Assembly: GCA_964016885.1 (NCBI GenBank)
Contig: OZ024747.1
Location: forward strand, 26,536,001-26,600,000
DNA: 64,000 nucleotides
Direction: 5' to 3'
Source of the DNA: Eledone cirrhosa
Lineage: Eukaryota
Shown: piece after piece, positions 2,090-55,960 of the stretch
Position numbering within the stretch: the stretch's first letter is position 1
Layout of the letters: each line of letters begins with the position of its first letter
Notes under the pieces: generated by a model
What the model was told of the DNA's origin: nothing
Databases searched by the model: none
Seen by the model: the letters and a program-made list of their open reading frames with translations, nothing else
Made by a program: the position numbers and the translations under genes

Positions 2090-3841
2090 GTGGGCGGCAA
2101 AGCCAAAGGAGAGTGTAGAGACCAACCTTTCTGCTTCCCGGGGTTCGGGTCGCACGACTTCCATGGGGTCGGGGGTGTTGGATGAAGGGTGTCTTGTGGT
2201 GGTGTGGGGTCGTCAGTGTGTGGTGGGGTTGGGGTGTTTGGAGTTGTGTTGGGGAGGGGAAGGGGAGGGGATGGGGAAAGCTTTTTAGGAGGACGCGGTT
2301 TATGGGTTTGACAGAGGGTGGTCCTACGTCCTCTTTAAAATCCTTTTTTAGTTTTTGGTAGAGGTTCATTGGGTTCTTTATTAATTTTAAATGTGGGTAG
2401 TTTTCTGATGAAACAAAGTTTACACCTTCGGTTTGTACCGAAGGGTTATTGTTTATGAGTTCTTTTAATTTATTATTGTTTCTGTTGATGTAAGTATAGT
2501 GTAATATCTTTTTTTCGGATGGTGTGAGTGTTTCGAAGAGGGGGGGGGGGGGCAGGTTTGGTTTTGTTTGTTGCTGGAGGGGTGTTTTGTGTTTTGTTGG
2601 ATTGTGTTGACATTTGGGTAGGGGCTGTTTGGCCTTGTGTGTTTTGCACATGTTTTCTTTTTTTCCTTTTAATCTGTCTGAAGGACTCCGTTCTTCCTCC
2701 GAATTCGTTGGGTTATCTTCAGTGTTGGAGGGAAGAGGTATGTTTGCTGGTAATGTTTCCGTGTTAGTCTTCTTTGTGGAGGAGATGGATGTCACTGTGT
2801 TAGACTGTGCTGTGTGTTGTGGCAGCGGTGGTTGTGTTGTTTTATTGAGTGAGGGGTTGGGTGGGACTGTGTTTTGTTTTGGGGTAATGTGTTGTGTCTG
2901 TTTGTGCTGTGGTGGTGGTGTAGTTTTACTGAGGGACTGGTTGGGTGGGACTGAGTTTTGTTGTTTGTTTATCTGTTGTGGTGGTGGTGGAGCTGGTGTT
3001 GGTAGCAGGGATTTCTTCTTGTTGAGTTGGGGACAAGCCGCCTTCAGGTGCCCTCTGCCTGCACAGATATGACAGGACGGCCTTCTCCCCTCCACGCTAA
3101 TGTTTATATAGCCGTGGCCCTCTAATAGGATTCTGTCGGGTATTTGGGCAATGCGTTCAGGCTTCATTTGCACTACAAGTTCTATACCTGTTCCACTGAA
3201 CGCATTGCCTGTGGTTTTCCCAATGGAAATCACGTTGTCATTCGCTGGATCGATGAAGCCAGCTATGAGCCAGCAGTAGTCCATATCTGGCATCATCGCA
3301 TCCAGCCATATGCGCTGAGTTCTTTTACCCATATAAGATGGATAAAAGGTAAAATTTGTCGAACGAATCGGCGACAAAGCATATTTTTTTGCCGCCGATT
3401 CCTTCTTCATAATAATGGCCAGGCTTCCATACAGCCTGTCTCTTCTTATGAAAGTGGCTTCATTAAGTACTTCTCGAAGTACCGCTTTAATTTCTGCTTG
3501 TGTTGGTTGTTGTGGCTTTTTGAGATCTTGTTGATGGTGCGGAAAACGACCGTCCGACTTTCAATATCTTTGGTGAGTTTTTGGGGCATTTTTACTGACA
3601 AGGCTCCATTTTCCCCTTGAGTTATGAATTGTTTGGCGTTTTTTATTCTTTGTGCCACATCTGAAATATTTTCAGGTATGTATGTTAAAGATTTTTTTGT
3701 TGTTTGTGCAAATGAGATGTTATTGGTGTTGACTTTGTCGTCTGTTTTGCTTTCTGTTATGATGTTGTTGTTTTCAAATGTTATTTTTGTGTTTGTTGTT
3801 TCTTTGTTTGTGGTATTAATATTGTCATGCAATTCTTTCAT
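2013..3841 (-). pseudogene. Copy 1 ORF1 (gag-like, CCHC knuckle, Pro/Thr linker, conserved C-terminal block), frameshifted
   Basis: ORFs 3446..3841 and 2013..3410 are colinear with ORF1 of copies 2-4 (GENG.SI..P, FYPSYMGKRTQR, VEGRRPSC). Confidence 0.85.

Positions 3842-4279: not shown

Positions 4280-4370
<91 letters not shown>
4266..4370 (+). repeat. (GATA)n microsatellite separating copy 1 and copy 2
   Basis: Over 20 perfect GATA units plus a degenerate left edge. Confidence 0.97.
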
Positions 4371-4371
<1 letters not shown>

Positions 4372-4598
4372 ATTTCTATTTATTTGCCACGAGGGCACAA
4401 AAGAAGGGGAAATTTACACAGTGGGGGAGTTTACATAAATCGAGTAAAGAAAAAAGGAATAACAATAATAATATAACAATAAAAAGTCCTCAAAAGGGAG
4501 GGGGCGTGTTGGGGATTGTACATACCCCCGAAAAGTGTGCAACTCTTTTCGCGGGGGAAGCCCAGAGAGGAGGCGCTCCCCCTTTCCTCTTCACTTCT

Positions 4599-7500
4599 TC
4601 ACCTACAGAGAGAAGGCCCATTTACACGGGCCATTCTCGCTTCTTTCACCCACCTTTCATAAAACTGTCTGGGACCAAGCACTTCTCTCTCCATCCTGAT
4701 CCTTCTTCCGAAGTGGTATCGGAAGAAGTAAACCAGGTGATGGCCGGAGAGAAAGTCACCCGACCTCAGACCTTTCAGGCGCGTCCACCACACAACCTCT
4801 TTCATCATGGCTATTATGCACAGAAAGACCGCCTCTGCTTCATTTCTGAAGGGAGGAGGCGGCTTGATGTTCACCACAGACTCGGCGGTTAATCGAATCG
4901 GCGCCACACGCGACAGCAGTCGTTCGACGTAGCCCCACAGATCGGCAACGCCCGGGCAGTGTACCAGTGCATGCGCAACGGTTTCCTCGTCGCGCACGCA
5001 TCTGGGACAGATCTTTTTCGCGGGATCCCTGCCCGGGCGCCCGTGTCTGTAGAGCTTTTCTCGAACGGGCAGAGCCCCCCGGTAACACTGCCAGGCTAGG
5101 GACCTCTGGAAGTTGTCCATGGGTCCCGGGCCGAAAGTTCTACCGAACAGGCTGGCCAGTTCGTCCTCCTCCATGCCTAGCGACTCTCCAAGGGTGTCGT
5201 CGCCCCTGCTAGCCACCAACCCTCGAAAGAATGTCGAGGTGGATTCTCCACTGACAGTCGGGTCCGCTTGCCAGATAGCCGTGAGCGCCTGGGCACACTC
5301 GGTGTGCCAGTTGCCCAGTTTTCTCGGTCTTTGCTTCACCCAGGATTGCAGTTCGGTGAGCGAGACGAGCTGTGGGAAGGCTCGCCTCACAAACGGGGCC
5401 CACACCGGCTGACCGTTGAGGAATACCTGTAGATGCCGTAGCCTCAATGCGTGCCTACGCATCAACAGCCACGGCATACCCAGCCCTCCTTTCGAAGGGT
5501 GCTGGCAGCAGATGGATCTCCTCACCATGGGAGGCCGCTTCTTCCAGAGGAACTGGAAGAGCATGCGTTCCATGATGGTGAGCTTTTCCTTGGGGCAAGG
5601 CAAGACGGTCAGGCAGTAGTAGATGACGGACGCTATGTAAGCGTTCGTCACCTCCGCCCGACCTTTCAGTGATAGTTTGCACTTGGCCCACTTCTGGGTC
5701 AGCGCAAACACCCTGCTCGTCACCTCGCCCCAATTCTTCTCCACCTGGAGGTCCGGTCCGAACCAGACCCCGAGCAGCTTCACCGGGCCCTCCGTCCACC
5801 GCCCGACGACACCGTCTAACGGCATCGGTTTGCCCCTCCACGTTCCGAGTTGCAAACCGACTGACTTGTCCTGGTTCAGCTTAGCCCCCGTCAGCCTTTC
5901 GTATTCCTCCAGTAGGGTGGCGATCGCCCCGATTTCCGAGGCGTCCGCCACCATTACTGTTACGTCGTCGGCATAGGCCGAGACCGCTTTGTGCAATCCT
6001 GGTTCCAGGGGTATGCCCCGCAGCAACTCCAACTTCCGCAGCAGTGGCTCGAGAGTCAATACGTACAGAAGGGAGGAGAGGGGGCACCCCTGTCTGATGG
6101 ATCGGGTGATTTGAAACGGCTCCGAGAGGTAGCCGTTTACTTTAATCCTAGAGTAGATCTTGCCACTGTGCATGGCAGAAATCCAGCCCCTGAAAACGGG
6201 TCCGAAGCCCGCCGCCGCTAGCACCGCATCCAGGTAACCATGGTCGACCCTATCGAACGCCTTAGATTGATCCAAGTTGATCAGGGCCCCACCAAAGCCG
6301 GGTTCGTAGCCAACCCTCTCGATGATGTATCGCATGAGGTGGAGGTTGTCGTGAATGGACCTGGACGGGATAGCGCATGTCTGCGCGTCTCCCACCAAAC
6401 CACCCACCACAAGCGCCAACCTCTTCGCCAACACCTTGGCCAAAATCTGTAACTCTGCATTCAGCAGAGTTATGGGCCTAAAGTTACTTAAGTCGTCCCC
6501 CTTGCTCTCGTCCTTCCTCACTAGCGTGACCACGCCCTTGGTTACAGAACAGGGAATTCTCCCGTTCTGTTGCCAGTTGCAATAGACAGCCTCGAGGAGT
6601 TCGGAGAACAAGACCGGCATAGCTAAATAAAGTTCGTATGGTAGACCATCGAGACCCGGGGATTTGCGTCTGCTGCATTGGCTGAGCGCTTCCCCGATTT
6701 CAGTGGCTGTGATTGGCCTTTCGCAGCACTCCGCTTCGCCGCTCGAAAGACGCGGTAGACCGTCGAGGTATGGACCGAAGTCCACATCCCCGTCCGGCCC
6801 CCCGCCACCTCCGAACAGTCGAGCAAAGTGCCTTTGAAAGGCCTCGCACATTCGCTCAGGTTCAAGGATCACCCGTCCATCCTGGTCTCGCAAAGACCGA
6901 ATGGTGGATTTAATCCCACTCTTGGCTTCTGTCACGCGGGCCCAGCTAACAGCTTTGGTCCCCTCGTTTCCTAAAGCACGTATTTTACTTCGGACAACGC
7001 AGCCTTCGTGCTTCGCGTCAAAGAACTGGCTCAATGCCGTTCTCGTCGCTAACACTCTGGCTACGTCTCCGCTCCTAATCGCCTCTTCTAGTTTATCTGT
7101 TAACTCCCTTTCCCTCCTATTTCTATTCGCCGCTAGTTCCTTACTGTAACCTATCGAACTTACTCTAATCTCTCTCTTTAGAGATATCCACCACCTACTG
7201 TTGACGATCGCTCCCGTCAACCGCATCTTAACTAAGCTACTAATCCGGTTTCTGTAATCTTTCTTTGTCGGTAAGGACAAGTTCATCTTCCAGTAACCGG
7301 GACCCTGTCTATGCGTTCTATCAAGGTTGACCACGCAGGTCACTAATTTGTGATCTGAATAGCCAACCATGATCAGTTCTGGACAACTAAATACGTCCCT
7401 ATCCTTACTCCTAACCAAAAACCTATCTAGGTACGATCTAGATTGTCCACTGCGGTTTGCCCAGGTCCAGGTTGGCGCAGTTGGACAATCTAGTCGAAAT

Positions 7501-8038
7501 CTATCGACCAGGTCGAATCGATCGAGTAACCCCTTGAGGCTGCTACACCCCCCTCTATCGGGACATGCCCCTGCATAGTCCCAACGCGCATCTAGGATTC
7601 CATTCCAGTCCCCCACTAAAAGCAGGGAACGCGACGTTCCTAGAAAAGTCTCCAGACGCTGGAAGAAGTCGGCTCTTTCCGCCCCGAAGGGAGCATAAAG
7701 ACCGACCAGTCTGAAAGCCCCGCCTTCACCGCCTCCGACGTCCAGCACCAGTAATCGACCCCCCGGGTCCGAGTGAACAATCTGTACGTCGAGAGTCAGA
7801 CGTTTATCCAGCAGTACGGCAACTCCCCCCCCCCCCCCCCGCCTCCGGGTTGACAGAGAGATGCGTGCATCTCAAAGTCATCGAAGGCGGGCGCCAGCTG
7901 TCTCACGCTGCTGATCCGACTCTCGCAAACAACCATCACATCTATACTTTGTGACCTGAGGTCACTTAGAAGCTTTGCTTGCTTCCAAGCTGAGCCCAGG
8001 CCACGCGCGTTCAAACAGCCAACTCTCAATTGATCTAT
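4599..8038 (-). pseudogene. Copy 2 ORF2 (APE-RT-CCHC) with a frameshift in a G homopolymer (~7824-7840) and a 10-bp deletion just before the stop
   Basis: ORFs 7796..8029 and 4599..7748 together match copy 3 ORF2. The C-terminus is GPSLCR versus GPSLYIVL in copy 3. Confidence 0.9.
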
Positions 8039-9869
8039 TTTGGTGTTGAAAGTGAAGAAAGAAAAGCACTTACCTCTCCGGGTTGCGTAATTTCCATGGC
8101 ATCAGGTGTGTTGGGTGGAGGGATGTTTTGTGGTGGTGTGGGGGTACACGTGTGTGGTGGGGTTGGGGTATTTGGAGTTGTGTCAGGGAGAGGGGCGGTT
8201 ATGGGGAAATCTTTCAAGAGGACGCGATTCAACGGTTTTAAACAGGGGGGGCTCACGTCCCGTCTAAATTGTTCTTTTAAAGAACGATAAAGGTCCAGAG
8301 GGACCTTTATCATTTTTAAATGGGTGAAGTTCTCTGTTGAGATAAAGTTTGGCCCTTCGGTCTGCACCATAGGGTTATTGTTTATTAATTTAACCAGTTT
8401 TTTGTTTTCTTTATTTATATATGTGTATTGCAACGTCTTTTTTTGTGATGCTGTCAATGTTTCGGAGAGGGGAGGCGCAGATTTATTTTTGTTTGTTGAG
8501 GGTGGGGTGTTTTTGATTGGAGTTGGTGTTTGTGTGTGGGTTATTTGTGGTGTGCTGGGTGTGTGTTTTCTTTTTTTTCTTTTAACTTGTCTGAAGGCTT
8601 CTCCTCCTTCTTCTTCAGAAGTTGGGGGAAACTCTTCAGCGCTAGGTGGGAGGGACGTGTTGTGTGGTTGTTTTTTTTTGCGGGAGGGGTAGATTTGTTA
8701 CTGTTTTTTTTATTATTTGTTTGGAATGGGTTTTGTGGTGGTGGTGGTGGTAATGTTTGTGTCGTGTTTGTGGTTGGTGATGGTGGTGGTGATGTTTGTG
8801 TTGTGGTTGGTGGTGGTGATTTTTGTGTCGTGCTTGTGTTTGGTGCTGGTGGTGGTGATGTTTGTGTTGTGTTTGTAGTTGGTGGTGTCTGTATTTTGTT
8901 TGCTGTGTGTGGTATTAGTGTATTTTTGGAGGTGGGTGGTGTTGGTGTACTGTTTGTGGTGGGTGTGGGCAATAGTCCTTTTTGGGGGATACGTTTCGGG
9001 CAGTTAGCCTTAACGTGTCCCCTTTCCATGCATAAATAGCATGCTGGTCTTCTCCCCTCTACAATTATGTATATTGGGGTAAGGTCATCCAGCCAGATGC
9101 GATCCGGGATTTGTGCTATTCTTTCGGGCCTCATTTGGACTAGTATATCGAGGCCCATTCCCAGGAACGCATCTCCAGTTGCCTTCCCCATTGACAGCAT
9201 TGTGTCTTCGCCCATATCTATGAAGCCAGCAATAGCCCACCAGAAGTCCATTGTGGGCAGCATTGTTTTTACTTTTACTCTCTGTGTTCTTCTACCCATG
9301 TAGGAGGGATAGAAGCTATATGTTGTCGATGAGAGTGGGCTTAGGGAAAGCTTCTCCGCCGTTTCCCTGTCTCTTGTTAGGACCGAAATGCTGCCATAGA
9401 GTCGGTCCTTTCGTATGAAGAGAATATTCTTCATATAGTCTTTTAGGACTAACTCTATTTCCATTTGGCTGGGCTGTGCTGGCTTTCTTGTCTGGTTCAG
9501 TATAGTTCTGTAGAGAACTGTGCTTTCTGTTCTGGCTTTTTTGAATTCTGGTGGGGAGTTAATGGAAAACATTCCGTTCTCCCCCAAAACAATGTGTTTC
9601 TTTGCTTCGGCCAGTTTTTCTCTGGCGGCAGTTAGGTCAATTGGTGTGTATCTAATGGATTGTTTTGTTTTCTGGGCGAAAGTTGCCCTGTTGTTATTTG
9701 TATTATTTTCTGTTTGTTTGTTTTCTGTTTGCTCATTTTCCTTAACATTTGTTTTTTCATTTTCTTTGTTTGTTTCATTGTCTAATTTTGTTGTAATTAT
9801 TTTTTGTTCTTCAGACTTGGGGGGCGTGGCAGAGCTAATGGCAGACATGTCTGCCATCTTTTCCGCCAT
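8035..9869 (-). CDS. Copy 2 ORF1 (CCHC gag-like), split at an A9 run (8671-8679)
   Basis: ORF 8541..9896 (first ATG 9869, knuckle CYLCMERGHVKANC) joins the frame of 8035..8457 (EEEGGEAFRQVKRKKRK...YTYINK) if one A is added. Confidence 0.85.
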
Positions 9870-37023: not shown

Positions 37024-37383
37024 TGGACGAACAGAGCCATGTAGACAATAAAATAAACCGATAGACAGACAGATACAAGAACAGTTAGACAGAGATGGAC
37101 AGACAGACACATCCTCACAGATAGACAAACACACATACACACAAATAGATAAATTTCTATTTATTTGCCACGAGGGCACAAAAGAAGGGGACATTTACAC
37201 AGTGGGGGAGTTTACATAAATCGAGTAAAGAAAAAAGGAATAACAATAATAATATAACAATAAAAAGTCCTCAAAAGGGAGGGGGCGTGTTGGGGATTGC
37301 ACATACCCCCGAAAAGTGTGCAACTCTTTTCGCGGGGGAAGCCCAGAGAGGAGGCGCTCCCCCTTTCCTCTTCGCTTCTTCAC

Positions 37384-40300
37384 CTACAGAACAATGTAGA
37401 GAGAAGGCCCATTTACACGGGCCATTCTCGCTTCTTTCACCCACCTTTCATAAAACTGTCTGGGACCAAGCACTTCTCTCTCCATCCTGATTCTTCTTCC
37501 GAAGTGGTATCGGAAGAAGTAAACCAGGTGATGGCCGGAGAGAAAGTCACCCGACCTCAGACCTTTCAGGCGCGTCCACCACACAACCTCTTTCATCATG
37601 GCTATTACGCACAGAAAGACCGCCTCTGCTTCATTTCTGAAGGGAGGAGGTGGCTTGATGTTCACCACAGACTCGGCGGTTAATCGAATCGGCGCCACAC
37701 GCGACAGCAGTCGTTCGACGTAGCCCCACAGATCGGCAACGCCCGGGCAGTGTACCAGTGCATGCGCAACGGTTTCCTCGTCGCGCACGCATCTGGGACA
37801 GATCTTTTTCGCGGGATCCCTGCCCGGGCGCCCGTGTCTGTAGAGCTTTTCTCGAACGGGCAGAGCCCCCCGGTAACACTGCCAGGCTAGGGACCTCTGG
37901 AAGTTGTCCATGGGTCCCGGGCCGAAAGTTCTACCGAACAGGCTGGCCAGTTCGTCCTCCTCCATGCCTAGCGACTCTCCAAGGGTGTCGTCGCCCCTGC
38001 TAGCCACCAACCCTCTATAGAATGTCGAGGTGGATTCTCCACTGACAGTCGGGTCCGCTTGCCAGATAGCCGTGAGCGCCTGGGCACACTCGGTGTGCCA
38101 GTTGCCCAGTTTTCTCGGTCTTTGCTTCACCCAGGATTGCAGTTCGGTGAGCGAGACGAGCTGTGGGAAGGCTCGCCTCACAAACGGGGCCCACACCGGC
38201 TGACCGTTGAGGAATACCTGTAGATGCCGTAGCCTCAATGCGTGCCTACGCATCAACAGCCACGGCATACCCAGCCCTCCTTTCGAAGGGTGCTGGCAGC
38301 AGATGGATCTCCTCACCATGGGAGGCCGCTTCTTCCAGAGGAACTGGAAGAGCATGCGTTCCATGATGGTGAGCTTTTCCTTGGGGCAAGGCACGACGGT
38401 CAGGCGGTAGTAGATGACGGACGCTATGTAAGCGTTCGTCACCTCCGCCCGACCTTTCAGTGATAGTTTGCACTTGGCCCACTTCTGGGTCAGCGCAAAC
38501 ACCCTGCTCGTCACCTCGCCCCAATTCTTCTCCACCTGGAGGTCCGGTCCGAACCAGACCCCGAGCAGCTTCACCGGGCCCTCCGTCGACCGCCCGACGA
38601 CACCGTCTAACGGCATCAGTTTGCCCCTCCACGTTCCGAGTTGCAAACCGACTGACTTGTCCTGGTTCAGCTTAGCCCCCGTCAGCCTTTCGTATTCCTC
38701 CAGTAGGGTGGCGATCGCCCCGATTTCCGAGGCGTCCGCCACCATTACTGTTACGTCGTCGGCATAGGCCGAGACCGCTTTGTGCAATCCCGGTTCCAGG
38801 GGTATGCCCCGCAGCAACTCCAACTTCCGCAGCAGTGGCTCGAGAGTCAATACGTACAGAAGGGAGGAGAGGGGGCACCCCTGTCTGATGGATCGGGTGA
38901 TTTGAAACGGCTCTGAGAGGTAGCCGTTTACTTTAATCCTAGAGTAGATCTTGCCACTGTGCATGGCAGAAATCCAGCCCCTGAAAACGGGTCCGAAGCC
39001 CGCCGCCGCTAGCACCGCATCCAGGTAACCATGGTCGACCCTATCGAACGCCTTAGATTGATCCAAGTTGATCAGGGCCCCACCAAAGCCGGGTTCGTAG
39101 CCAACCCTCTCTATGATGTATCGCATGAGGTGGAGGTTGTCGTGAATGGACCTGGACGGGATAGCGCATGTCTGCGCGTCTCCCACCAAACCACCCACCA
39201 CAAGCGCCAACCTCTTCGCCAACACCTTGGCCAAAATCTGTAACTCTGCATTCAGCAGAGTTATGGGCCTAAAGTTACTTAAGTCGTCCCCCTTGCTCTC
39301 GTCCTTCCTCACTAGCGTGACCACGCCCTTGGTTTCAGAACAGGGAATTCTCCCGTTCTGTTGCCAGTTGCAATAGACAGCCTCGAGGAGTTCGGAGAAC
39401 AAGACCGGCATAGCTAAATAAAGTTCGTATGGTAGACCATCGAGAACCGGGGATTTGCGTCTGCTGCATTGGCTGAGCGCTTCCCCGATTTCAGTGGCTG
39501 TGATTGGCCTTTCGCAGCACTCCACTTCGCCGCTCGAAAGACGCGGTAGACCGTCGAGGTATGGACCGAAGTCCACATCCCCGTCCGGCCCCCCGCCACC
39601 TCCGAACAGTCGAGCAAAGTGCCTTTGAAAGGTCTCGCACATTCGCTCAGGTTCAAGGATCACCCGTCCATCCTGGTCTCGCAAAGACCGAATGGTGGAT
39701 TTAATCCCACTCTTGGCTTCTGTCACGCGGGCCCAGCTAACAGCTTTGGTCCCCTCGTTTCCTAAAGCACGTATTTTACTTCGGACAACGCAGCCTTCGT
39801 GCTTCGCGTCAAAGAACTGGCTCAATGCCGTTCTCGTCGCTAACACTCTGGCTACGTCTCCGCTCCTAATCGCCTCTTCTAGTTTATCTGTTAACTCCCT
39901 TTCCCTCCTATTTCTATTCGCCGCTAGTTCCTTACTGTAACCTATCGAACTTACTCTAATCTCTCTCTTTAGAGATATCCACCACCTACTGTTGACGATC
40001 GCTCCCGTCAACCGCATCTTAACTAAGCTACTAATCCGGTTTCTGTAATCTTTCTTTGTCGGTAAGGACAAGTTCATCTTCCAGTAACCGGGACCCTGTC
40101 TATGCGTTCTATCAAGGTTGACCACGCAGGTCACTAATTTGTGATCTGAATAGCCAACCATGATCAGTTCTGGACAACTAAATACGTCCCTATCCTTACT
40201 CCTAACCAAAAACCTATCTAGGTACGATCTAGATTGTCCACTGCGGTTTGCCCAGGTCCAGGTTGGCGCAGTTGGACAATCTAGTCGAAATCTATCGACC

Positions 40301-40824
40301 AGGTCGAATCGATCGAGTAACCCCTTGAGGCTGCTACACCCCCCTCTATCGGGACATGCCCCTGCATAGTCCCAACGCGCATCTAGGATTCCATTCCAGT
40401 CCCCCACTAAAAGCAGGGAACGCGACGTTCCTAGAAAAGTCTCCAGACGCTGGAAGAAGTCGGCTCTTTCCGCCCCGAAGGGAGCATAAAGACCGACCAG
40501 TCTGAAAGCCCCGCCTTCACTGCCTCCGACGTCCAGCACCAGTAATCGACCCCCCGGGTCCGAGTGAACAATCTGTACGTCGAGAGTCAGACGTTTATCC
40601 AGCAGTACGGCAACTCCCCCCCCCCCGCCTCCGGGTTGACAGAGAGATGCGTGCATCTCAAAGTCATCGAAGGCGGGCGCCAGCTGTCTCACGCTGCTGA
40701 TCCGACTCTCGCAAACAACCATCACATCTATACTTTGTGACCTGAGGTCACTTAGAAGCTTTGCTTGCTTCCAAGCTGAGCCCAGGCCACGCGCGTTCAA
40801 ACAGCCAACTCTCAATTGATCTAT
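37384..40824 (-). CDS. Copy 3 ORF2: APE endonuclease, reverse transcriptase, C-terminal CCHC; probable non-ATG start
   Basis: Motifs VGCLNARGL, CESR, YAP, GDWN, YLDRFLV, SDH; FRPITLLN, DQSKAFDRV, QGCPLS, YADD, LLGVWF; CPRC..ETVAHALVHC. ATA at 40824 aligns with the ATG of copies 1 and 4. Confidence 0.95.
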   Translation of the reverse strand: MDQLRVGCLNARGLGSAWKQAKLLSDLRSQSIDVMVVCESRISSVRQLAPAFDDFEMHASLCQPGGGGGGVAVLLDKRLTLDVQIVHSDPGGRLLVLDVGGSEGGAFRLVGLYAPFGAERADFFQRLETFLGTSRSLLLVGDWNGILDARWDYAGACPDRGGCSSLKGLLDRFDLVDRFRLDCPTAPTWTWANRSGQSRSYLDRFLVRSKDRDVFSCPELIMVGYSDHKLVTCVVNLDRTHRQGPGYWKMNLSLPTKKDYRNRISSLVKMRLTGAIVNSRWWISLKREIRVSSIGYSKELAANRNRRERELTDKLEEAIRSGDVARVLATRTALSQFFDAKHEGCVVRSKIRALGNEGTKAVSWARVTEAKSGIKSTIRSLRDQDGRVILEPERMCETFQRHFARLFGGGGGPDGDVDFGPYLDGLPRLSSGEVECCERPITATEIGEALSQCSRRKSPVLDGLPYELYLAMPVLFSELLEAVYCNWQQNGRIPCSETKGVVTLVRKDESKGDDLSNFRPITLLNAELQILAKVLAKRLALVVGGLVGDAQTCAIPSRSIHDNLHLMRYIIERVGYEPGFGGALINLDQSKAFDRVDHGYLDAVLAAAGFGPVFRGWISAMHSGKIYSRIKVNGYLSEPFQITRSIRQGCPLSSLLYVLTLEPLLRKLELLRGIPLEPGLHKAVSAYADDVTVMVADASEIGAIATLLEEYERLTGAKLNQDKSVGLQLGTWRGKLMPLDGVVGRSTEGPVKLLGVWFGPDLQVEKNWGEVTSRVFALTQKWAKCKLSLKGRAEVTNAYIASVIYYRLTVVPCPKEKLTIMERMLFQFLWKKRPPMVRRSICCQHPSKGGLGMPWLLMRRHALRLRHLQVFLNGQPVWAPFVRRAFPQLVSLTELQSWVKQRPRKLGNWHTECAQALTAIWQADPTVSGESTSTFYRGLVASRGDDTLGESLGMEEDELASLFGRTFGPGPMDNFQRSLAWQCYRGALPVREKLYRHGRPGRDPAKKICPRCVRDEETVAHALVHCPGVADLWGYVERLLSRVAPIRLTAESVVNIKPPPPFRNEAEAVFLCVIAMMKEVVWWTRLKGLRSGDFLSGHHLVYFFRYHFGRRIRMEREVLGPRQFYERWVKEARMARVNGPSLYIVL

Positions 40825-42651
40825 TTTGGTGTTGAAAGTGAAGAAAGAAAAGCACTTACCTCTCCGGGTTGCGTAATTTCCATGGCATCAGGTGTGTTGG
40901 GTGGAGGGATGTTTTGTGGTGGTGTGGGGGTACACGTGTGTGGTGGGGTTGGGGTATTTGGAGTTGTGTCAGGGAGAGGGGCGGTTATGGGGAAATCTTT
41001 CAAGAGGACGCGATTCAACGGTTTTAAACAGGGGGGGCTCACGTCCCGTCTAAATTGTTCTTTTAAGGAACGATAAAGGTCCAGAGGGACCTTTATCATT
41101 TTTAAATGGGTGAAGTTCTCTGTTGAGATAAAGTTTGGCCCTTCGGTCTGCACCATAGGGTTATTGTTTATTAATTTAACCAGTTTTTTGTTTTCTTTAT
41201 TTATATATGTGTATTGCAACGTCTTTTTTTGTGATGCTGTCAATGTTTCGGAGAGGGGAGGCGCAGATTTATTTTTGTTTGTTGAGGGTGGGGTGTTTTT
41301 GATTGGAGTTGGTGTTTGTGTGTGGGTTATTTGTGGTGTGCTGGGTGTGTGTTTTCTTTTTTTTCTTTTAACTTGTCTGAAGGCTTCTCCTCCTTCTTCT
41401 TCAGAAGTTGGGGGAAACTCTTCAGCGCTAGGTGGGAGGGACGTGTTGTGTGGTTGTTTTTTTTGCGGGAGGGGTAGATTTGTTACTGTTTTTTTTATTA
41501 TTTGTTTGGAATGGGTTTTGTGGTGGTGGTGGTAATGTTTGTGTCGTGCTTGTGGTTGGTGATGGTGGTGGTGATGTTTGTGTTGTGGTTGGTGGTGGTG
41601 ATTTTTGTGTCGTGCTTGTGTTTGGTGCTGGTGGTGGTGATGTTTGTGTTGTGTTTGTGGTTGGTGGTGTCTGTATTTTGTTTGCTGTGTGTGGTATTAG
41701 TGTATTTTTGGAGGTGGGTGGTGTTGGTGTACTGTTTGTGGTGGGTGTGGGCAATAGTCCTTTTTGGGGGATACGTTTCGGGCAGTTAGCCTTAACGTGT
41801 CCCCTTTCCATGCATAAATAGCATGCTGGTCTTCTCCCCTCTACAATTATGTCTATTGGGGTAAGGTCATCCAGCCAGATGCGATCCGGGATTTGTGCTA
41901 TTCTTTCGGGCCTCATTTGGACTAGTATGTCGAGGCCCATTCCCAGGAACGCATCTCCAGTTGCCTTCCCTATTGACAGCATAGTGTCTTCGCCCATATC
42001 AATGAAGCCAGCAATAGCCCACCAGAAGTCCATTGTGGGCAGCATTGTTTTTACTTTTACTCTCTGTGTTCTTCTACCCATGTAGGAGGGATAGAAGCTA
42101 TATGTTGTCGACGAGAGTGGGCTTAGGGAAAGCTTCTCCGCCGTTTCTTTGTCTCTTGTTAGGACCGAAATGCTGCCATAGAGTCGGTCCTTTCGTATGA
42201 AGAGAATATTCTTCATATAGTCTTTTAGGACTAACTCTATTTCCATTTGGCTGGGCTGTGATGGCTTTCTTGTCTGGTTCAGTATAGTTCTGTATAGAAC
42301 TGTGTTTTCTGCTCTGGCTTTCTTGAATTCTGGGGGGGAGTTAATGGAAAACATTCCGTTCTCCCCCAAAACAATGTGTTTCTTTGCTTCGGCCAGTTTT
42401 TCTCTGGCGGCAGTTAGGTCAATTGGTGTGTATGTAATGGATTGTTTTGTTTTCTGGGCGAAAGTTGCCCTGTCGTTATTTGTATTATTTTCTGTTTGTT
42501 TGTTTTCTGTTTGCTCATTTTCCTTAACATTTGTTTTTTCATTTTGTTTGTTTGTTTCAATGTCTAATTTTGTTGTAATTATTTTTTGTTCTTCAGACTT
42601 GGGGGGCGTGGCAGAGCTAATGGCAGACATGTCTGCCATCTTTTCCGCCAT
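40821..42651 (-). CDS. Copy 3 ORF1 (CCHC gag-like), split at an A8 run (41457-41464)
   Basis: ORFs 41428..42678 and 40821..41243 are near identical to copy 2 ORF1. Confidence 0.85.
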
Positions 42652-42855
42652 GCTGCCAAGAAAGAAATTTTTCGGCAAAAATAGATATTTATTTTACCCC
42701 CTAAAAAGGGGGTAAATGCAAAAATGTTTCCCTAAATAACAGGGGTTAGTGTTCCAAATGTGTTGCACTAAAAAATTTATCCGGTACTTACAATAGTAAG
42801 GGTAAATCCCGATGGAATAGCGGAGCCGATGCGAAGCGTGTCTTACTCTATCAAA

Positions 42856-50345: not shown

Positions 50346-50705
50346 GAATAGAGTGGGACAATTGATAGAGATAGGTGTTGGTGGATATAGGGAGGGGGAG
50401 AATTTGGCAGTGATGGATAGAGTGAGATGGAATGAGAGAGAGTGTTTGTTGTATGATAAATATATATTTCTATTTATTTGCCACCAGGGCATCAAAGATT
50501 GGGACAAATACAAAGGGGGGAGTTTACATACATTTAAAAAGACGTGTAAAAAACATATAACAAATTAAATTTAACAATCGATGTCCTCAATAGGGAGGGG
50601 CGTTGACATGGGTCGCACACACCCCCGAAAAAATGTGCAACCCTCCTCTTCAGAAGCACAAAGAGCGGGTGCTTCCTTCCTCTTCTCATTCTTCTCTTCT
50701 CTCAC

Positions 50706-53700
50706 CTACAGGCTGATATAGAGAGAAGGCCCATTCACTCGGGCCATTCTCGCTACTTTCACCCATCTTTCATAAAACTTGCTGGGGTAGAGCACCTCTC
50801 TCTCCATTCTGATCCTTCTTCTAAAGTGGTACTTGAAAAAAAAGACCAGTTGTTGGCCGGAGAGATAGGTGTCTGACCTCAGCCCTTTCAACCTTGTCCA
50901 CCATACAACTTCTTTCGCCATGGCTATCACACAGAGGAAAACCGCCTCTCCTTCGTTTTTGAAAGGGGGAGGCGGTTTGATTGTGACAATGTTCTCGGTG
51001 GTCAACCGGATTGGTCCCACCCGCGACAGTAGTCGTTCTACATAGCCCCACAGGTCAGCAACGCCCGGGCAGTGTACGAATGCGTGTGCGACGGTTTCCT
51101 CGTCACGCACGCATCTTGGACAGATCTTCTTCGAGGGGTCCCTACCCGGGCGCCCGTGTCTGTAGAGCTTGTCCCGAACGGGTAGAGCTCCTCGGTAACA
51201 TTGCCAAGCCAGGGACTTTTGGAAGTTGTCCATCGGTCCCGGGCCAAACGTCCTACCGAACAGACTGGCCAGCTCGTCTTCCTCCATGCCCAGAGCCTCT
51301 CCGAGAGCGTCGTCACACTTACTGCGCACCAACCCTCTATAGAATGTTGAGGTTGAGTCTCCACTGATTGCCGGATCCGCTTGCCAGAGGGCCGTGAGCG
51401 CCTGGGCACATTCAATGTGCCAGTCGCCCACTTTTCTCGGTCTTTGCTTGACCCAGGATTGCAGCTCGGTGAGTGAGACGAGTCTCGGAAAGGCTCGCCT
51501 CACAAACAGGGCCCACACCGGCTGACCGGTGAGGAATACCTGGAGGTGCCGTAGCCTTAATGCGTGTCTACGCATCGTCAGCCACGGCAACCCCAGCCCT
51601 CCGTTCGAAGGGTGTTGACAGCAGATGGATCTTCTCACCAAAGGAGCCCGCTTCTTCCAAAGAAATCGGAAGAGCGCGCGCTCCATTTTGGCGAGTGTTT
51701 TCTCTGGGCAAGGCACGACGGTCAAGCGGTAGTAGATGACGGACGCTATATAAGCGTTCGTCACCTCCGCTCGACCTTTCAGGGATAGTTTGCACTCGGC
51801 CCACTTCTGGGCGAGTGCAAACACCTTGCCCGTTACCTCGTCCCAGTTTTTCTCCACCTGAAGGTCCGGTCCGAACCAGACCCCGAGCATCTTCACCGGT
51901 CCCTCCGGCCAGCGTCCGACGATGCCTTCGGAGAGCATCGTTTTGCCCCTCCACGTCCCGAGTTGCAAACCGACGGACTTGTCCCGGTTCAGCTTGGCTC
52001 CTGTGAACCTTTCATATTCCTCCAGTAAGGTGCCGATCTGCCCGATTTCCGAGGCGCACGACACCATTACTGTCACGTCATCGGCGTAGGCCGACACCGC
52101 TTTCCGCAATCACGGTTCCAAGGGGATGCCCTGCAACAGCTCCAGCTTCCTCAGTAGTGGCTCGAGAGCCAGCACATACAGGAGGGAGGAGAGAGGGCAT
52201 CCCTGTCGAATGGATCGCGTGATTTGGAACGGCTCTGAGAGGTAGCCGTTCACCTTGACCCTCGAGCAGGTATTGCTGCTGTGCATTGCAGCAATCCAGC
52301 CCCTGAAATCGGGTCCGAAGCCTACCGCCGTGAGCACCGCATCCAGGTACCGATGGTCAACCCTATCGAACGCTTTAGATTGATCCAAGTTGATCAGGGC
52401 CCCACCAAAGCCGGGTTCGTTCCCTACCCTCTCTACGATGTATCGCATGAGGTGGAGGTTGTCGTGTATGGACCTGGACGGGATTGCGCATGTCTGCGCT
52501 TCTCCCACCAGGTTCCCGACGACAAGCGCCAACCTCTTCGCTAACACCTTGGCCAAAATCATTAACTCTGTGTTTAGCAGAGTTATGGGCCTGAAGTTAT
52601 CTATGTCATCCCCCTTGTTCTCGTCCTTCCTCACCAGCGTGACTACGCCCTTGGTTACAGAACTGGGAATTCTCCCGTTCTGTTGCCAGTTGCAGTAGAC
52701 CGCCTCGAGGAGACCGGAGAACAAGCCCGGCATCGCTACATAAAGTTCATATGGTAGACCATCGAGACCCGGAGATTTGCGTTTGCCGCATTGGCTCAGC
52801 GCTTCCCCTATTTCAGCGGCTGAAATCTGCCTCTCGCAGGACTTCGCCTCCCCGTCCGAGAGCCGCGCCAGACCGTCGAGGTATGGACCGAAATCCATGG
52901 CCCCAGTCGGCCCGCCGCCCCTCCCGAACAGTCGTGCAAAGCGCCGTTGAAAGGCCGCGCTCATCCGCTCAGGTTCAAGGATCACGCGTCCATCCTGGTC
53001 CTTCAAAGACCGAATCGTGGACTTGTTTCCACTTTTTGCCTCTGTCACTCGGGCCCAGCTAACAGCTTTGGCTCCCTCGTTACCCAGAGCACGAATTTTA
53101 CTCCTGACAACGCAGCCCTCGTGCTTCGCATCAAAGAACTGGTCTAGGGCCGTTCTTGACGCCAGCACGCCGGCCACGTTGCCACTCCTAATCGCCTCTT
53201 CTACTCTATTTGTTAATTCCCTTTCAGTTCTATTCCTATCTGATGCTAATTCCCGACTAAAACCTATCGACTCTATTCTAATTTCTCTCTTGAGAGAGCC
53301 CCACCACCTGTTGTTGACAATTGCCCCCGTCAAACGCTGCTTAACTAGTGTGCTAATCCGCTTACTGTAAGCTTTGTTTGTCGGTAAAGACAAGTTTAGC
53401 TTCCAGTAACCGGGTCCCTATCTATGAGTTCTATCAAGGTTGACCACTCCGGTCAACAACTTGTGATCCGAATAGTCAACCATGAACATTCGTGGACAGC
53501 TTAATATGTCCCTATCCTTATTTCTAACTAGGAACCTATCTAGGTACGACCTGGATGTTCCACTGCGATTACTCCACGTCAACCGTGGCACAGTTGGAAA
53601 ATCCAGTCGATATCTATCGGCCAGATCAAATCGGCCGATTAATCGTTACACCCCCCTCTATCGGGACATGCCCCTACATAGTCACAACGTGCATCCAGGA

Positions 53701-54133
53701 TACCATTCCAGTCCCTCACTAAAAGCAAGGAGCGAGACGTTCCCAGGAAATTCTCCAGGCGTCGGAAGAAGTCCGGTCGCGGTGTCCCCGATGGGGCATA
53801 CGCTGCCACCAGCCTGAAAGCTCCACCTTCACCACTGCCGACGTCTAAAACCACCAGTCGACCCTCCGGGTCCAGGTGTACCTGCTGTGTGGCAAGACCC
53901 AGGTATTTTCGCAGCAGAACGACAACCCCACCCCCACCCCTCGGCTGACAGAGAGATGCGTAGATCTCAAAGTCGTCGAAGATGGGGGCCAGTTGGCGCT
54001 CGCTGCTGATCCTGGACTCACAAATAACCATTACATCCACTCTGTGCGACCTGAGGTCATTTAAGAGTTTGCCCTATTTCCAGGACATCCCCAAGCCGCG
54101 TGCATTCACACATCCAACTCTTATATTGGCCAT
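50706..54133 (-). pseudogene. Copy 4 ORF2 (APE-RT-CCHC) with nonsense mutations and a frameshift
   Basis: Fragments 53639..54040, 52110..53393 and 50706..52109; ATG of MANIRVGCVNARGL at 54133. Confidence 0.92.
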
Positions 54134-55960
54134 GTTGGTGCTGAAGAGGTAAAAAGGAAGAGGAAAGGAAATTACTTACCTCTTCGTCTCCTGGGGGCCA
54201 GGCTGCACAATTTCCATGGGGGTGCTGGAAGGGTTGTTTGGTGGGGTGGTGATTTGTGATTGGTGGGGTGAGGACATCAGTGTGTGGTGGGATTAGGGTG
54301 TTTGGTGGGGTGTGGGTGTCTGGTGTGGGGGTGGGGAAACATCTCAATAGGACGCTGTTATGTGGTTTGGTGCAGTTGGTCCCCACATGCATTGGATGGT
54401 TCTTTTTCAAAGTTACATAGGTTTCCGTTGGGACCCTAATCATCATTAGGTGCGGTTTGTTTGCTGCGTAGGTGAAAGTGATCCCTTCGGTTTCCACCGA
54501 AGGGTTATTTTCTATCGCTTTCATCAACGTTTTATTGTTCTTGTTAATGTATGTATAGAGTTTTTGTTGTGTTGTGTTTGTTTCTGTTTGTTGTTCTTGC
54601 GGGTGTTTGCGTTTTATAGTACGTGTTATGTTTTGGGGAGGGGTGGGTTTTTTTATTTGTGATGTTTGTTCTGTTTGTGCTGGTGGCTGTGTGTTTGTGG
54701 CATTTTTGTTAATGTGGTGCCTTTTTTTTTGCCTTTTCACCTGTTGAAAGGGTTCTCCCTCGTCGTCACTGGGTGACGTTGATACGGAGTCCTCTTCCGT
54801 GTTGTTGGGGAGGGGTATATTTTGGGGTTTTGTTGTGGTTGCTTTTGTATTTGTTTTAGGTGGGGAGGGGTTGGGTGGAACAGTGTTTTGTGTTGTTATT
54901 TTTCCGTGTTGTTGTTGTGGTGGTGGTGGTGGTGGTGGTGGTGGTGGTGGTGTTGTGTTCGGGGTTGACAGAAGAGCCTTTTTTTTTACTCATTAATTGA
55001 GGACAGGCAGCCCTCAGGTGACCCCTGCTTAAGCAGTGGTAACATGACGGCCGCCTTCCCTCCACTGAAATGTTTATATAAGTTAGCCCGTCCAGAGGCA
55101 CGCGTTGTGGGATATTCGCTATTCGTTCTGGGCTCATTTGCACCAGAACTTCTACGGTGGTCCCACCAAATATACCTCCGGAGGACTTTCCTATTGAAAT
55201 TATCTTGTCTTCGTCAAAGTTTATTATTCCACATAGTATCCACCAAATGTTTACATTTGGTGTGATACTCATTATTTTTATTCTTTGTGTCCTTTTTCCC
55301 CTGTATGTGGGGTAAAAGGTGAAGTGGGGGGACACAATGGGTGCTATCGAGTACTTTTGAGCTGTTGACTGGTTGTTCATCAGCACCGAAATGCTACCAA
55401 ACAGTTTACCTTTTTGTATGAAGGTTAAGTCCTTCATTGCGTCTTTTAGAACCAGCTCAATTTCATTTTGTGATAATTGAGCTGGTTTTCTTGTTACGTT
55501 CGATATTGTCCTGAAAACCACAGTTTTCAGGACAGCCTCTCTACGTAATTCCTGTGGAGAATTAATGCTAAAAGCACCGTTTTCGCCAAAAGTCACGAAT
55601 TGTTTTGCGTCTTGTAATAGTTGTTTAGCATTTGTTATGTCTATTGGCGTGTATAGTTCGTTTTTTTTTTACGGTCTGTGAAAATGTTGTTTTGGTGTTG
55701 TTGTCTTTCGTGTTACTGTCACTGTTGGTAATATTGGTGTTGCTATTGTTGCAGTTGTTGGTTGTGGTGTTGTTGTCATTGTTCTTGTTGTTGGTGCTGG
55801 TATTATTTGCCGGATTTGGTTTCGCGGTTTCGATATTTTCCACGTTTTTCGATGATGCGAGGGGGGACGGCTGCAAGCTTTGCACTCCTACCTTCCCTCC
55901 ACCACTTTTCTTAGTGAACGTGGCACTCACGACAGTGTGCGAGGTGGAAATGGCATCCAT
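54057..55960 (-). pseudogene. Copy 4 ORF1, frameshifted at A homopolymers
   Basis: Fragments 55625.., 54856..55596 (CYHCLSRGHLRAAC) and 54057..54740 (YTYINKNNK block). Confidence 0.87.

Follow-up and report, generated by a model that had tools for sequence, protein, structure and literature searches.

Predicted long-range RNA pairing between the two ends of ORF2 in an L1/Tx1-type retrotransposon of Eledone cirrhosa, and its bearing on the splice-like sites at these ends

In this study, a 64-kb window of the 3.0-Gb genome of Eledone cirrhosa (the whole stretch analysed; GenBank assembly GCA_964016885.1, contig OZ024747.1, positions 26,536,001-26,600,000) was found to contain four minus-strand copies of one group of long interspersed nuclear elements (LINEs), copies 2 and 3 belonging to family A, copy 4 to family B and copy 1 to family C; all element coordinates below are window positions on the minus strand. 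Its sequence and the family-A genome matches identify copy 3 (37150..42852) as a full-length L1/Tx1-type retrotransposon without long terminal repeats (non-LTR), lying within a (TATC)n tract. Its first open reading frame (ORF1, 40821..42651), frameshifted at an A-run near 41456, reaches 610 aa with a putative CCHC knuckle in the intact copy L005, the second (ORF2, 37384..40824) encodes an APE endonuclease, a reverse transcriptase (RT) and a zf-RVT domain, and an AATAAA is found at the 3' end (37160..37165). The original prediction for this locus proposed that ORF2 is bracketed by splice signals, and that its removal might leave a spliced ORF1-only mRNA. We report here that the same two ends are predicted to pair with each other.

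The domains of ORF2 were matched by PF03372 (E=7e-12), PF00078 (E=6e-24) and PF13966 (E=3e-5, just under its cut-off), and the CCHC motif of ORF1 weakly by PF00098 (E=0.018, below cut-off) and by feature matches of 0.90-0.92 to CCHC clusters in Atlas; database searches by sequence found no ORF1 homologs. The non-LTR hallmarks were all seen, namely absence of LTRs, a 3' AATAAA with a simple-repeat tail, 5'-truncated copies and a microsatellite target. The target is (TATC)n, and copies are stacked head-to-tail, for instance copies 1 and 2 of the window (4338-4370, 10070, 42852; L094, L152). With a putative CCHC knuckle in ORF1, an ORF2 with APE, RT and zinc-binding domains, no LTRs and insertion into simple repeats, the element resembles Tx1-group members of the L1 clade such as Kibi, Koshi and crocodilian Tx1, although the target here is (TATC)n and neither an ORF2-spanning duplex nor a donor at the ORF1 end was found in the accessible text of that work (PMC4494074). 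By this likeness of features, rather than by a tree, it seems to work like a microsatellite-targeting Tx1 LINE, and 'L1-Tx1' families have been recently active in Octopus vulgaris, according to the accessible part of that report (PMC13282606).

Eleven lineages (A-K) were defined from 201 loci of the same genome, one natural copy representing each. Family A is very young, its best 40 matches being 100% identical over 421 bp and its donor region having 360 exact genome matches, and the ORF2-start pattern of the AUG-bearing families has 2,701 genome matches. Family K (L182-L201), with at least 45 copies carrying an open ORF2, is young as well, and shares with family A 68% identity in ORF2 and an identity of 0.54 at four-fold sites.

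The donor-like motifs at the end of ORF1 lie where the original prediction had placed them (a slash marks the putative exon-intron boundary): GAG/GTAAGT at 8073 in copy 2, at 40859 in copy 3 (40854..40862) and at 54179 in copy 4, and AAG/GTTGGT at 2126 in copy 1 (2121..2129). On the minus strand of the window, AGGTAAGT occurs only in copies 2, 3 and 4, at these donor positions. The GTTGGT of copy 1 is due to an A-to-T change that is private to it and falls within the ORF1 stop, 26 of 29 other family-C copies compared having GTAGGT. A donor-like site is present at the ORF1 end in all 11 lineages, as GAG/GTAAGT (A, B, D, E, F), AAG/GTAGGT (C), AAG/GTAAGT (I, K), GAG/GTAGGT (J), AGG/GTGAGT (G, with a sister type GAG/GTGAGC) and CAG/GTTGGT (H). 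It stands in three codon phases. In family A it is in phase 0, 12 codons ahead of the ORF1 stop; families B and C, to which copies 4 and 1 belong, have it in phase 2, and the distant family K in phase 1. An Arg codon together with the ORF1 stop itself makes up the donor in B-F, I and J; H shares their phase, but the sampled copy has lost its stop. The motif is kept with TAA, TAG and TGA alike. Homopolymer errors in single copies, considered as the source of these phase differences, were rejected because the differences are family-wide, and thus the argument from codon phase holds at the level of families. Retention across three phases and three stop codons supports the RNA-level constraint at both ends of ORF2 that the original prediction had proposed.

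The strength of this constraint deserves some caution. Of 1,314 stop-like triplets within the bodies of ORF2, only 2 stand in donor context, so a stop codon by itself is insufficient to produce the motif; on the other hand, 127 of 290 four-fold sites (44%) are invariant across A-H and 26 of 106 (25%) across all 11 lineages, and with a common origin and unsaturated neutral divergence, conservation of the donor is good but not overwhelming evidence of selection. By a simple consensus count, rather than a MaxEnt-type score, the donor is the best match to the U1 consensus on the sense strand in four of the five loci scored and the second best in the fifth, thus matching the 5' splice-site consensus, and the best site bears GT in 124 of 127 junction contexts.

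At the other end of ORF2, TAG/G ends at 37384 in copy 3 and at 50706 in copy 4, giving putative introns of 3,476 and 3,474 nt, respectively; copy 2 has a private 10-nt deletion in this region. When both sites were scored across lineages, GT at the donor and TAG/G at the ORF2 stop were found in all 11. However, the acceptor-like tract (37384..37407) consists of the GPSLYIVL codons and the ORF2 stop (GPSLYxxL across copies), and lies within the 3' arm of the predicted pairing described below. The purine-rich 'enhancer' tract of the original prediction is accounted for by predicted pairing with the spacer and ORF2 start, as are most letters of the acceptor-like site.

The predicted RNA duplex, of about 70 nt, joins the ORF1 end, spacer and ORF2 start to the ORF2 end, stop, purine tract and a hairpin of the 3' untranslated region (3'UTR), 3.4 kb apart. 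Its 5' arm starts some 10 nt ahead of the donor and reaches across the spacer as far as codon 7 of ORF2; its 3' arm begins with the last ORF2 codons, continues over the TAG and purine tract, and includes hairpin 1 of the 3'UTR. In copy 3 the 5' arm (40803..40871; last codons before the donor, donor, pyrimidine tract and first seven or so ORF2 codons) pairs with 37336..37416 at -67.7 kcal/mol over 52 pairs. In copy 2, 8017..8085 pairs with 4555..4625, the arm with the private deletion, at -61.9 kcal/mol, and in copy 4, 54112..54191, whose donor is the Arg codon and TAA stop, pairs with 50658..50738, which includes the ORF2 stop, at -60.8 kcal/mol over 54 pairs.

Complementarity of the arms exceeds controls for composition and position, fits lineage by lineage, shows two-sided changes and is biased towards the sense strand. 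Along the element (342-352 windows), the ORF2-stop region was the best partner of the 5' arm in 9/9 representatives from 8 lineages, and the exact cognate window outscored every non-overlapping window in 8/9. The duplex was stronger than any of 200 obtained with dinucleotide-shuffled 3' arms in 11/11 lineages (z -3.6 to -8.3), and sense pairing was better than antisense in 10/11 through G-U pairs. After double-centring, the cognate arm ranked first in seven of the 11 lineages, second in three and third in one, a sum reached by 1 of 100,000 permutations (in which the relatedness of lineages is ignored). In hand-anchored helices 329 of 429 cells were paired, and 11 of 39 pairs had changed on both sides. 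The spacers from donor to start codon vary from 25 to 46 nt among A-H, yet each matches its own purine tract, and the duplex is still present in family K despite the 68% ORF2 identity to family A. Co-folding of both ends with their local hairpins gained 10-33 kcal/mol in 5/5, and the free 3.8-kb fold of family E contains the outer duplex (35/35 pairs).

The duplex takes in the sites in question. Donor positions -1G, +5G and +6U are partnered in all 11 lineages, +6U facing A or G, while +2..+4 are unpaired in A (as in copy 3), B, D, E, F and K. The ORF2 start codon faces the ORF2 stop, and a C immediately before this start is the partner of the G of TAG in 10/11 lineages (U in J). Since the purine tract pairs with the spacer and this G pairs upstream of the start, the AG/G of the 'acceptor' and the 'enhancer' are accounted for by the duplex.

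Several points weigh against a functional duplex. Free 3.8-kb folds lacked it in family A (0/35 pairs) and family K (0/36 pairs), where enforcing it cost 8.8 and 8.5 kcal/mol, respectively, of about 1,600-1,700 in total, so the outer duplex was present in the full-span fold of one of three lineages; a local hairpin displaced the inner helices when the two ends of B and of C were co-folded. The pairing is largely of pyrimidine-rich with purine-rich sequence, and because of this composition non-cognate arms still pair fairly well (-31 to -70 kcal/mol). The register of the helices was chosen by hand, the best of four outer-helix offsets (74, 54, 90 and 54 of 110 cells) being kept and K treated separately, and lineages G, H, I and J are known from a single copy each. 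The duplex leaves unexplained the UAA kept at the unpaired triplet in A and K, whose ORF1 stop lies elsewhere. Finally, complementarity, lineage specificity, sense bias and inclusion of the donor, ORF2 start, ORF2 stop and hairpin 1 are read directly from sequence, while the functional steps are what we infer from them.

Formation of the outer helices takes up both the loop and the strands of hairpin 1 in the 3'UTR (37334..37363), so that only one of the two structures can be present at a time. Two 3'UTR hairpins (37297-37363) recur across lineages, as in LINEs with stringent 3'-end recognition. The 3'UTR by itself folds no better than shuffles (z -0.76), and a search of Rfam gave two weak matches only, far below the gathering score. 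The local hairpin that competes with the inner helices in B and C lies in the RMARVNGP codons (37417-37430 and homologs), and may explain the invariant synonymous sites there.

The start of ORF2 in family A bears on how the duplex might act. It is an ATA (40824-40822) overlapping the ORF1 stop TAG (40823-40821), with no AUG there, and this A-TAG overlap was seen in 43/43 family-A junctions, some from overlapping loci (in the window, 40821-40824 and 8035-8038). An ATA overlapping the ORF1 stop fits reinitiation, and an AUG-less start in a family of at least 360 near-identical copies suggests that reinitiation would be AUG-independent. ORF2 translation in mammalian L1 is AUG-independent. The arrangement resembles the termination-reinitiation of SART1 and mammalian L1, in which the RNA is bicistronic, ORF2 lies at or just after the ORF1 stop and structure adjoins the start, family A having the overlapping stop and start without AUG; structure near the ORF2 start affects ORF2 translation in SART1, but there, as far as the accessible text goes, it lies just downstream of the start, whereas the partner predicted here is found at a distance of 3.4 kb, in a stretch that contains the ORF2 stop and part of the 3'UTR (PMC3894237).

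Taken together, we hold with moderate confidence that the ~70-nt duplex would loop out ORF2, mask both splice-like sites and gate ORF2 translation, with the RNA staying unspliced. In this model the duplex would form once the 3' arm is transcribed, and would deny U1 access to the donor and U2AF access to the acceptor, thereby keeping the RNA full-length. In the cytoplasm the ORF2 start would remain closed until a ribosome finishing ORF1 melts the 5' arm and then reinitiates; in most lineages the ORF1 stop is the unpaired triplet, where a terminating ribosome would open this arm. Such a gate would yield much ORF1p and little ORF2p with no need of splicing, and once the duplex opens, hairpin 1 could form again, perhaps as a recognition site for ORF2p. 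On this view a by-product of codons, stop and pairing would be all that the acceptor-like site represents. A precedent may be human L1, in which, on the part of the study available, donors are kept but rarely used and structural sequestration of a donor has been proposed (PMC5860796); there, too, an intronless LINE keeps a functional-looking donor that structure may conceal.

The alternative that survives best, though we consider it unlikely, is that ORF2 is a real regulated spliceosomal intron, whose removal gives an ORF1+3'UTR mRNA and whose spliced fraction is set, or whose ends are joined, by the duplex. It would account for the rank of the donor against the U1 consensus, for its retention in three phases with any stop codon, for GT at the best site of nearly all junction contexts and for the invariant TAG/G. 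Spliced ORF1 would moreover stop within 4 codons in 7/11 lineages, including phase-0 A (EVKK-stop) and phase-1 K (EGW-stop) as well as B-D (unchanged), G and J, and the C-terminus ETKR-stop of copy 4 was confirmed to be the same spliced or unspliced. In E, F, H and I, however, the spliced frame would run 78, 70, 35 and 32 unconserved residues, respectively, into the 3'UTR, and an immediate stop, expected from G-T-purine-purine in three of four cases, was seen in only three of eight phase-2 lineages. The conserved, properly terminated ORF1 or Gag that splicing gives in the copia type was thus not found. The proposed ORF1-only mRNA is therefore putative: the donor- and acceptor-like motifs are real, but the regenerated stop is missing in 4/11 lineages. 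Both sites are also predicted to be paired, about 35 bp apart along the helix. Splice sites paired in a helix more often have their splicing blocked.

HAL1 elements are ORF1-only, and a spliced RNA might have left precise spliced or ORF2-less copies of the HAL1 or SpIRE type in the genome. None was found. The exact family-A splice junction, an A/B-only pattern allowing any join 55-115 nt wide and the family-A junction with any non-T at +6 each gave 0 genome matches, against 360 unspliced family-A copies, and family K gave 0 as well; for C-F there was none among the 86 matches listed, which were mostly an unrelated stretch, at least partly in family-K ORF2, the remainder being point changes or small deletions at the donor. 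As these searches were exact-match only, diverged copies would escape them, and as an ORF2-less RNA requires trans-mobilisation, its genomic copies could be rare; the absence therefore lowers the probability of splicing but does not refute it. For comparison, spliced copies of human L1 make up ~2% of full-length insertions, though those keep ORF2, and SpIRE splicing, which is described as detrimental in the accessible part of that study, takes place in the 5'UTR or 5'UTR/ORF1 (PMC5860796). Four runs of unrecorded read type were compared as contigs. In run X4 the donor is bridged unspliced by one contig (40639-40985) and the acceptor by another (37145-37752), and the 40860->37383 joint is absent among the 15 joints listed, a further 131 being unlisted; since rare forms are lost from such contigs and it is not certain that X4 is RNA, neither observation was used as evidence.

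Drosophila copia makes a gag-only RNA by splicing. In the gag-only RNA of Ty1/copia elements, exemplified by Arabidopsis EVD, the ORF for the structural protein ends, like ORF1 here, in a conserved donor of U1 type, and structural protein is needed in excess; as far as the accessible text shows, the donor is conserved and the acceptor less telling, which is the pattern seen here (PMC5580714). However, EVD is an LTR element with demonstrated splicing and a short intron coupled to early termination (PMC5580714), whereas splicing in the LINE is putative and the stop is not regenerated in 4/11 lineages. A version in which the whole RT ORF is a structure-controlled intron, and the duplex, holding both splice sites as well as the start and stop of ORF2, decides whether the RNA stays full-length for retrotransposition or is spliced to an ORF1-only mRNA, seems doubtful to us. 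Two other processing routes were rejected: a 34-39-nt mini-intron or ORF1-ORF2 fusion through an AG before the ORF2 start, as the gap is very short and the AG, present in A, B, G and K, is absent in C-F, and back-splicing of ORF2, as this AG is missing in C-F.

A further alternative, slightly less likely still than the intron, is that the donor is a landing pad for U1 snRNP without splicing, U1 on the nascent RNA suppressing premature polyadenylation at an ORF1 AATAAA before being displaced by the duplex. In HIV-1, a downstream donor suppresses an upstream poly(A) site. The landing pad would make U1 the reason for the motif, which is kept whatever the phase, and in 5/5 lineages an AATAAA is found 225-353 nt ahead of the donor, with none within ORF2 in 4/5. 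However, ORF1 is very A-rich, so AATAAA is expected there by chance, and pairing, or the stop-codon context, already covers most donor letters. U1 at the EVD donor represses premature termination, but in the accessible account the suppressed sites lie downstream of that donor (PMC5580714). The landing-pad proposal is compatible with the duplex, and U1 binding to nascent RNA alongside it is possible.

That neither splicing nor a functional duplex is involved, the motifs stemming from Arg-plus-stop context and common descent and the complementarity being a low-complexity coincidence, is in our view very unlikely: it is in keeping with the proportion of invariant four-fold sites, the lack of the duplex in two of three full-span folds and the 3'UTR z-score given above, but every control, whether by shuffling, window scan, comparison of cognate with swapped arms or strand, speaks for the duplex, spacers of differing length match their own purine tracts and the motif survives two frame changes.

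Some other features of the locus and family should be mentioned. The ORF1 frameshift at the A-run is found in copies 2 and 3; among 30 near-identical copies (L001-L030) this run (~41456) has 10 A in 19 loci, 9 in five, 11 in one and 8 in one, with four unmatched, and ORF1 is open to the end in nine, the variation being homopolymer slippage or assembly error. In L094 the tail of one copy continues straight into the 5' end of the next. Of 44 breakpoints of 5' truncation, 16 have TATC upstream and 2 of these 16 fall inside the duplex arms, too few to call a hotspot; truncated copies starting in the arms are L114 (7 nt before the donor) and L092 (15 nt before the ORF2 stop). A metagenome scan for distant relatives gave six loci with 23-32% identity. 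The window also holds a 23-kb satellite (12774-35930; 45-bp unit, 515 copies, 93% matches), whose unit opens with a pyrimidine stretch like the ORF2 end of the LINE, which may be due to chance.

Neither a whole-ORF2 intron nor an ORF2-spanning duplex in a LINE was found in full-text literature searches, most subscription papers being outside their reach, and copia-like splicing, if true, would be new for a non-LTR element. The proposed duplex bears on how bicistronic LINE RNAs give much ORF1p and very little ORF2p, and on how strong splice sites persist unspliced: by co-varying pairing of the start of ORF2 with its stop, at the expense of a 3'UTR hairpin, it would offer one directly testable switch.

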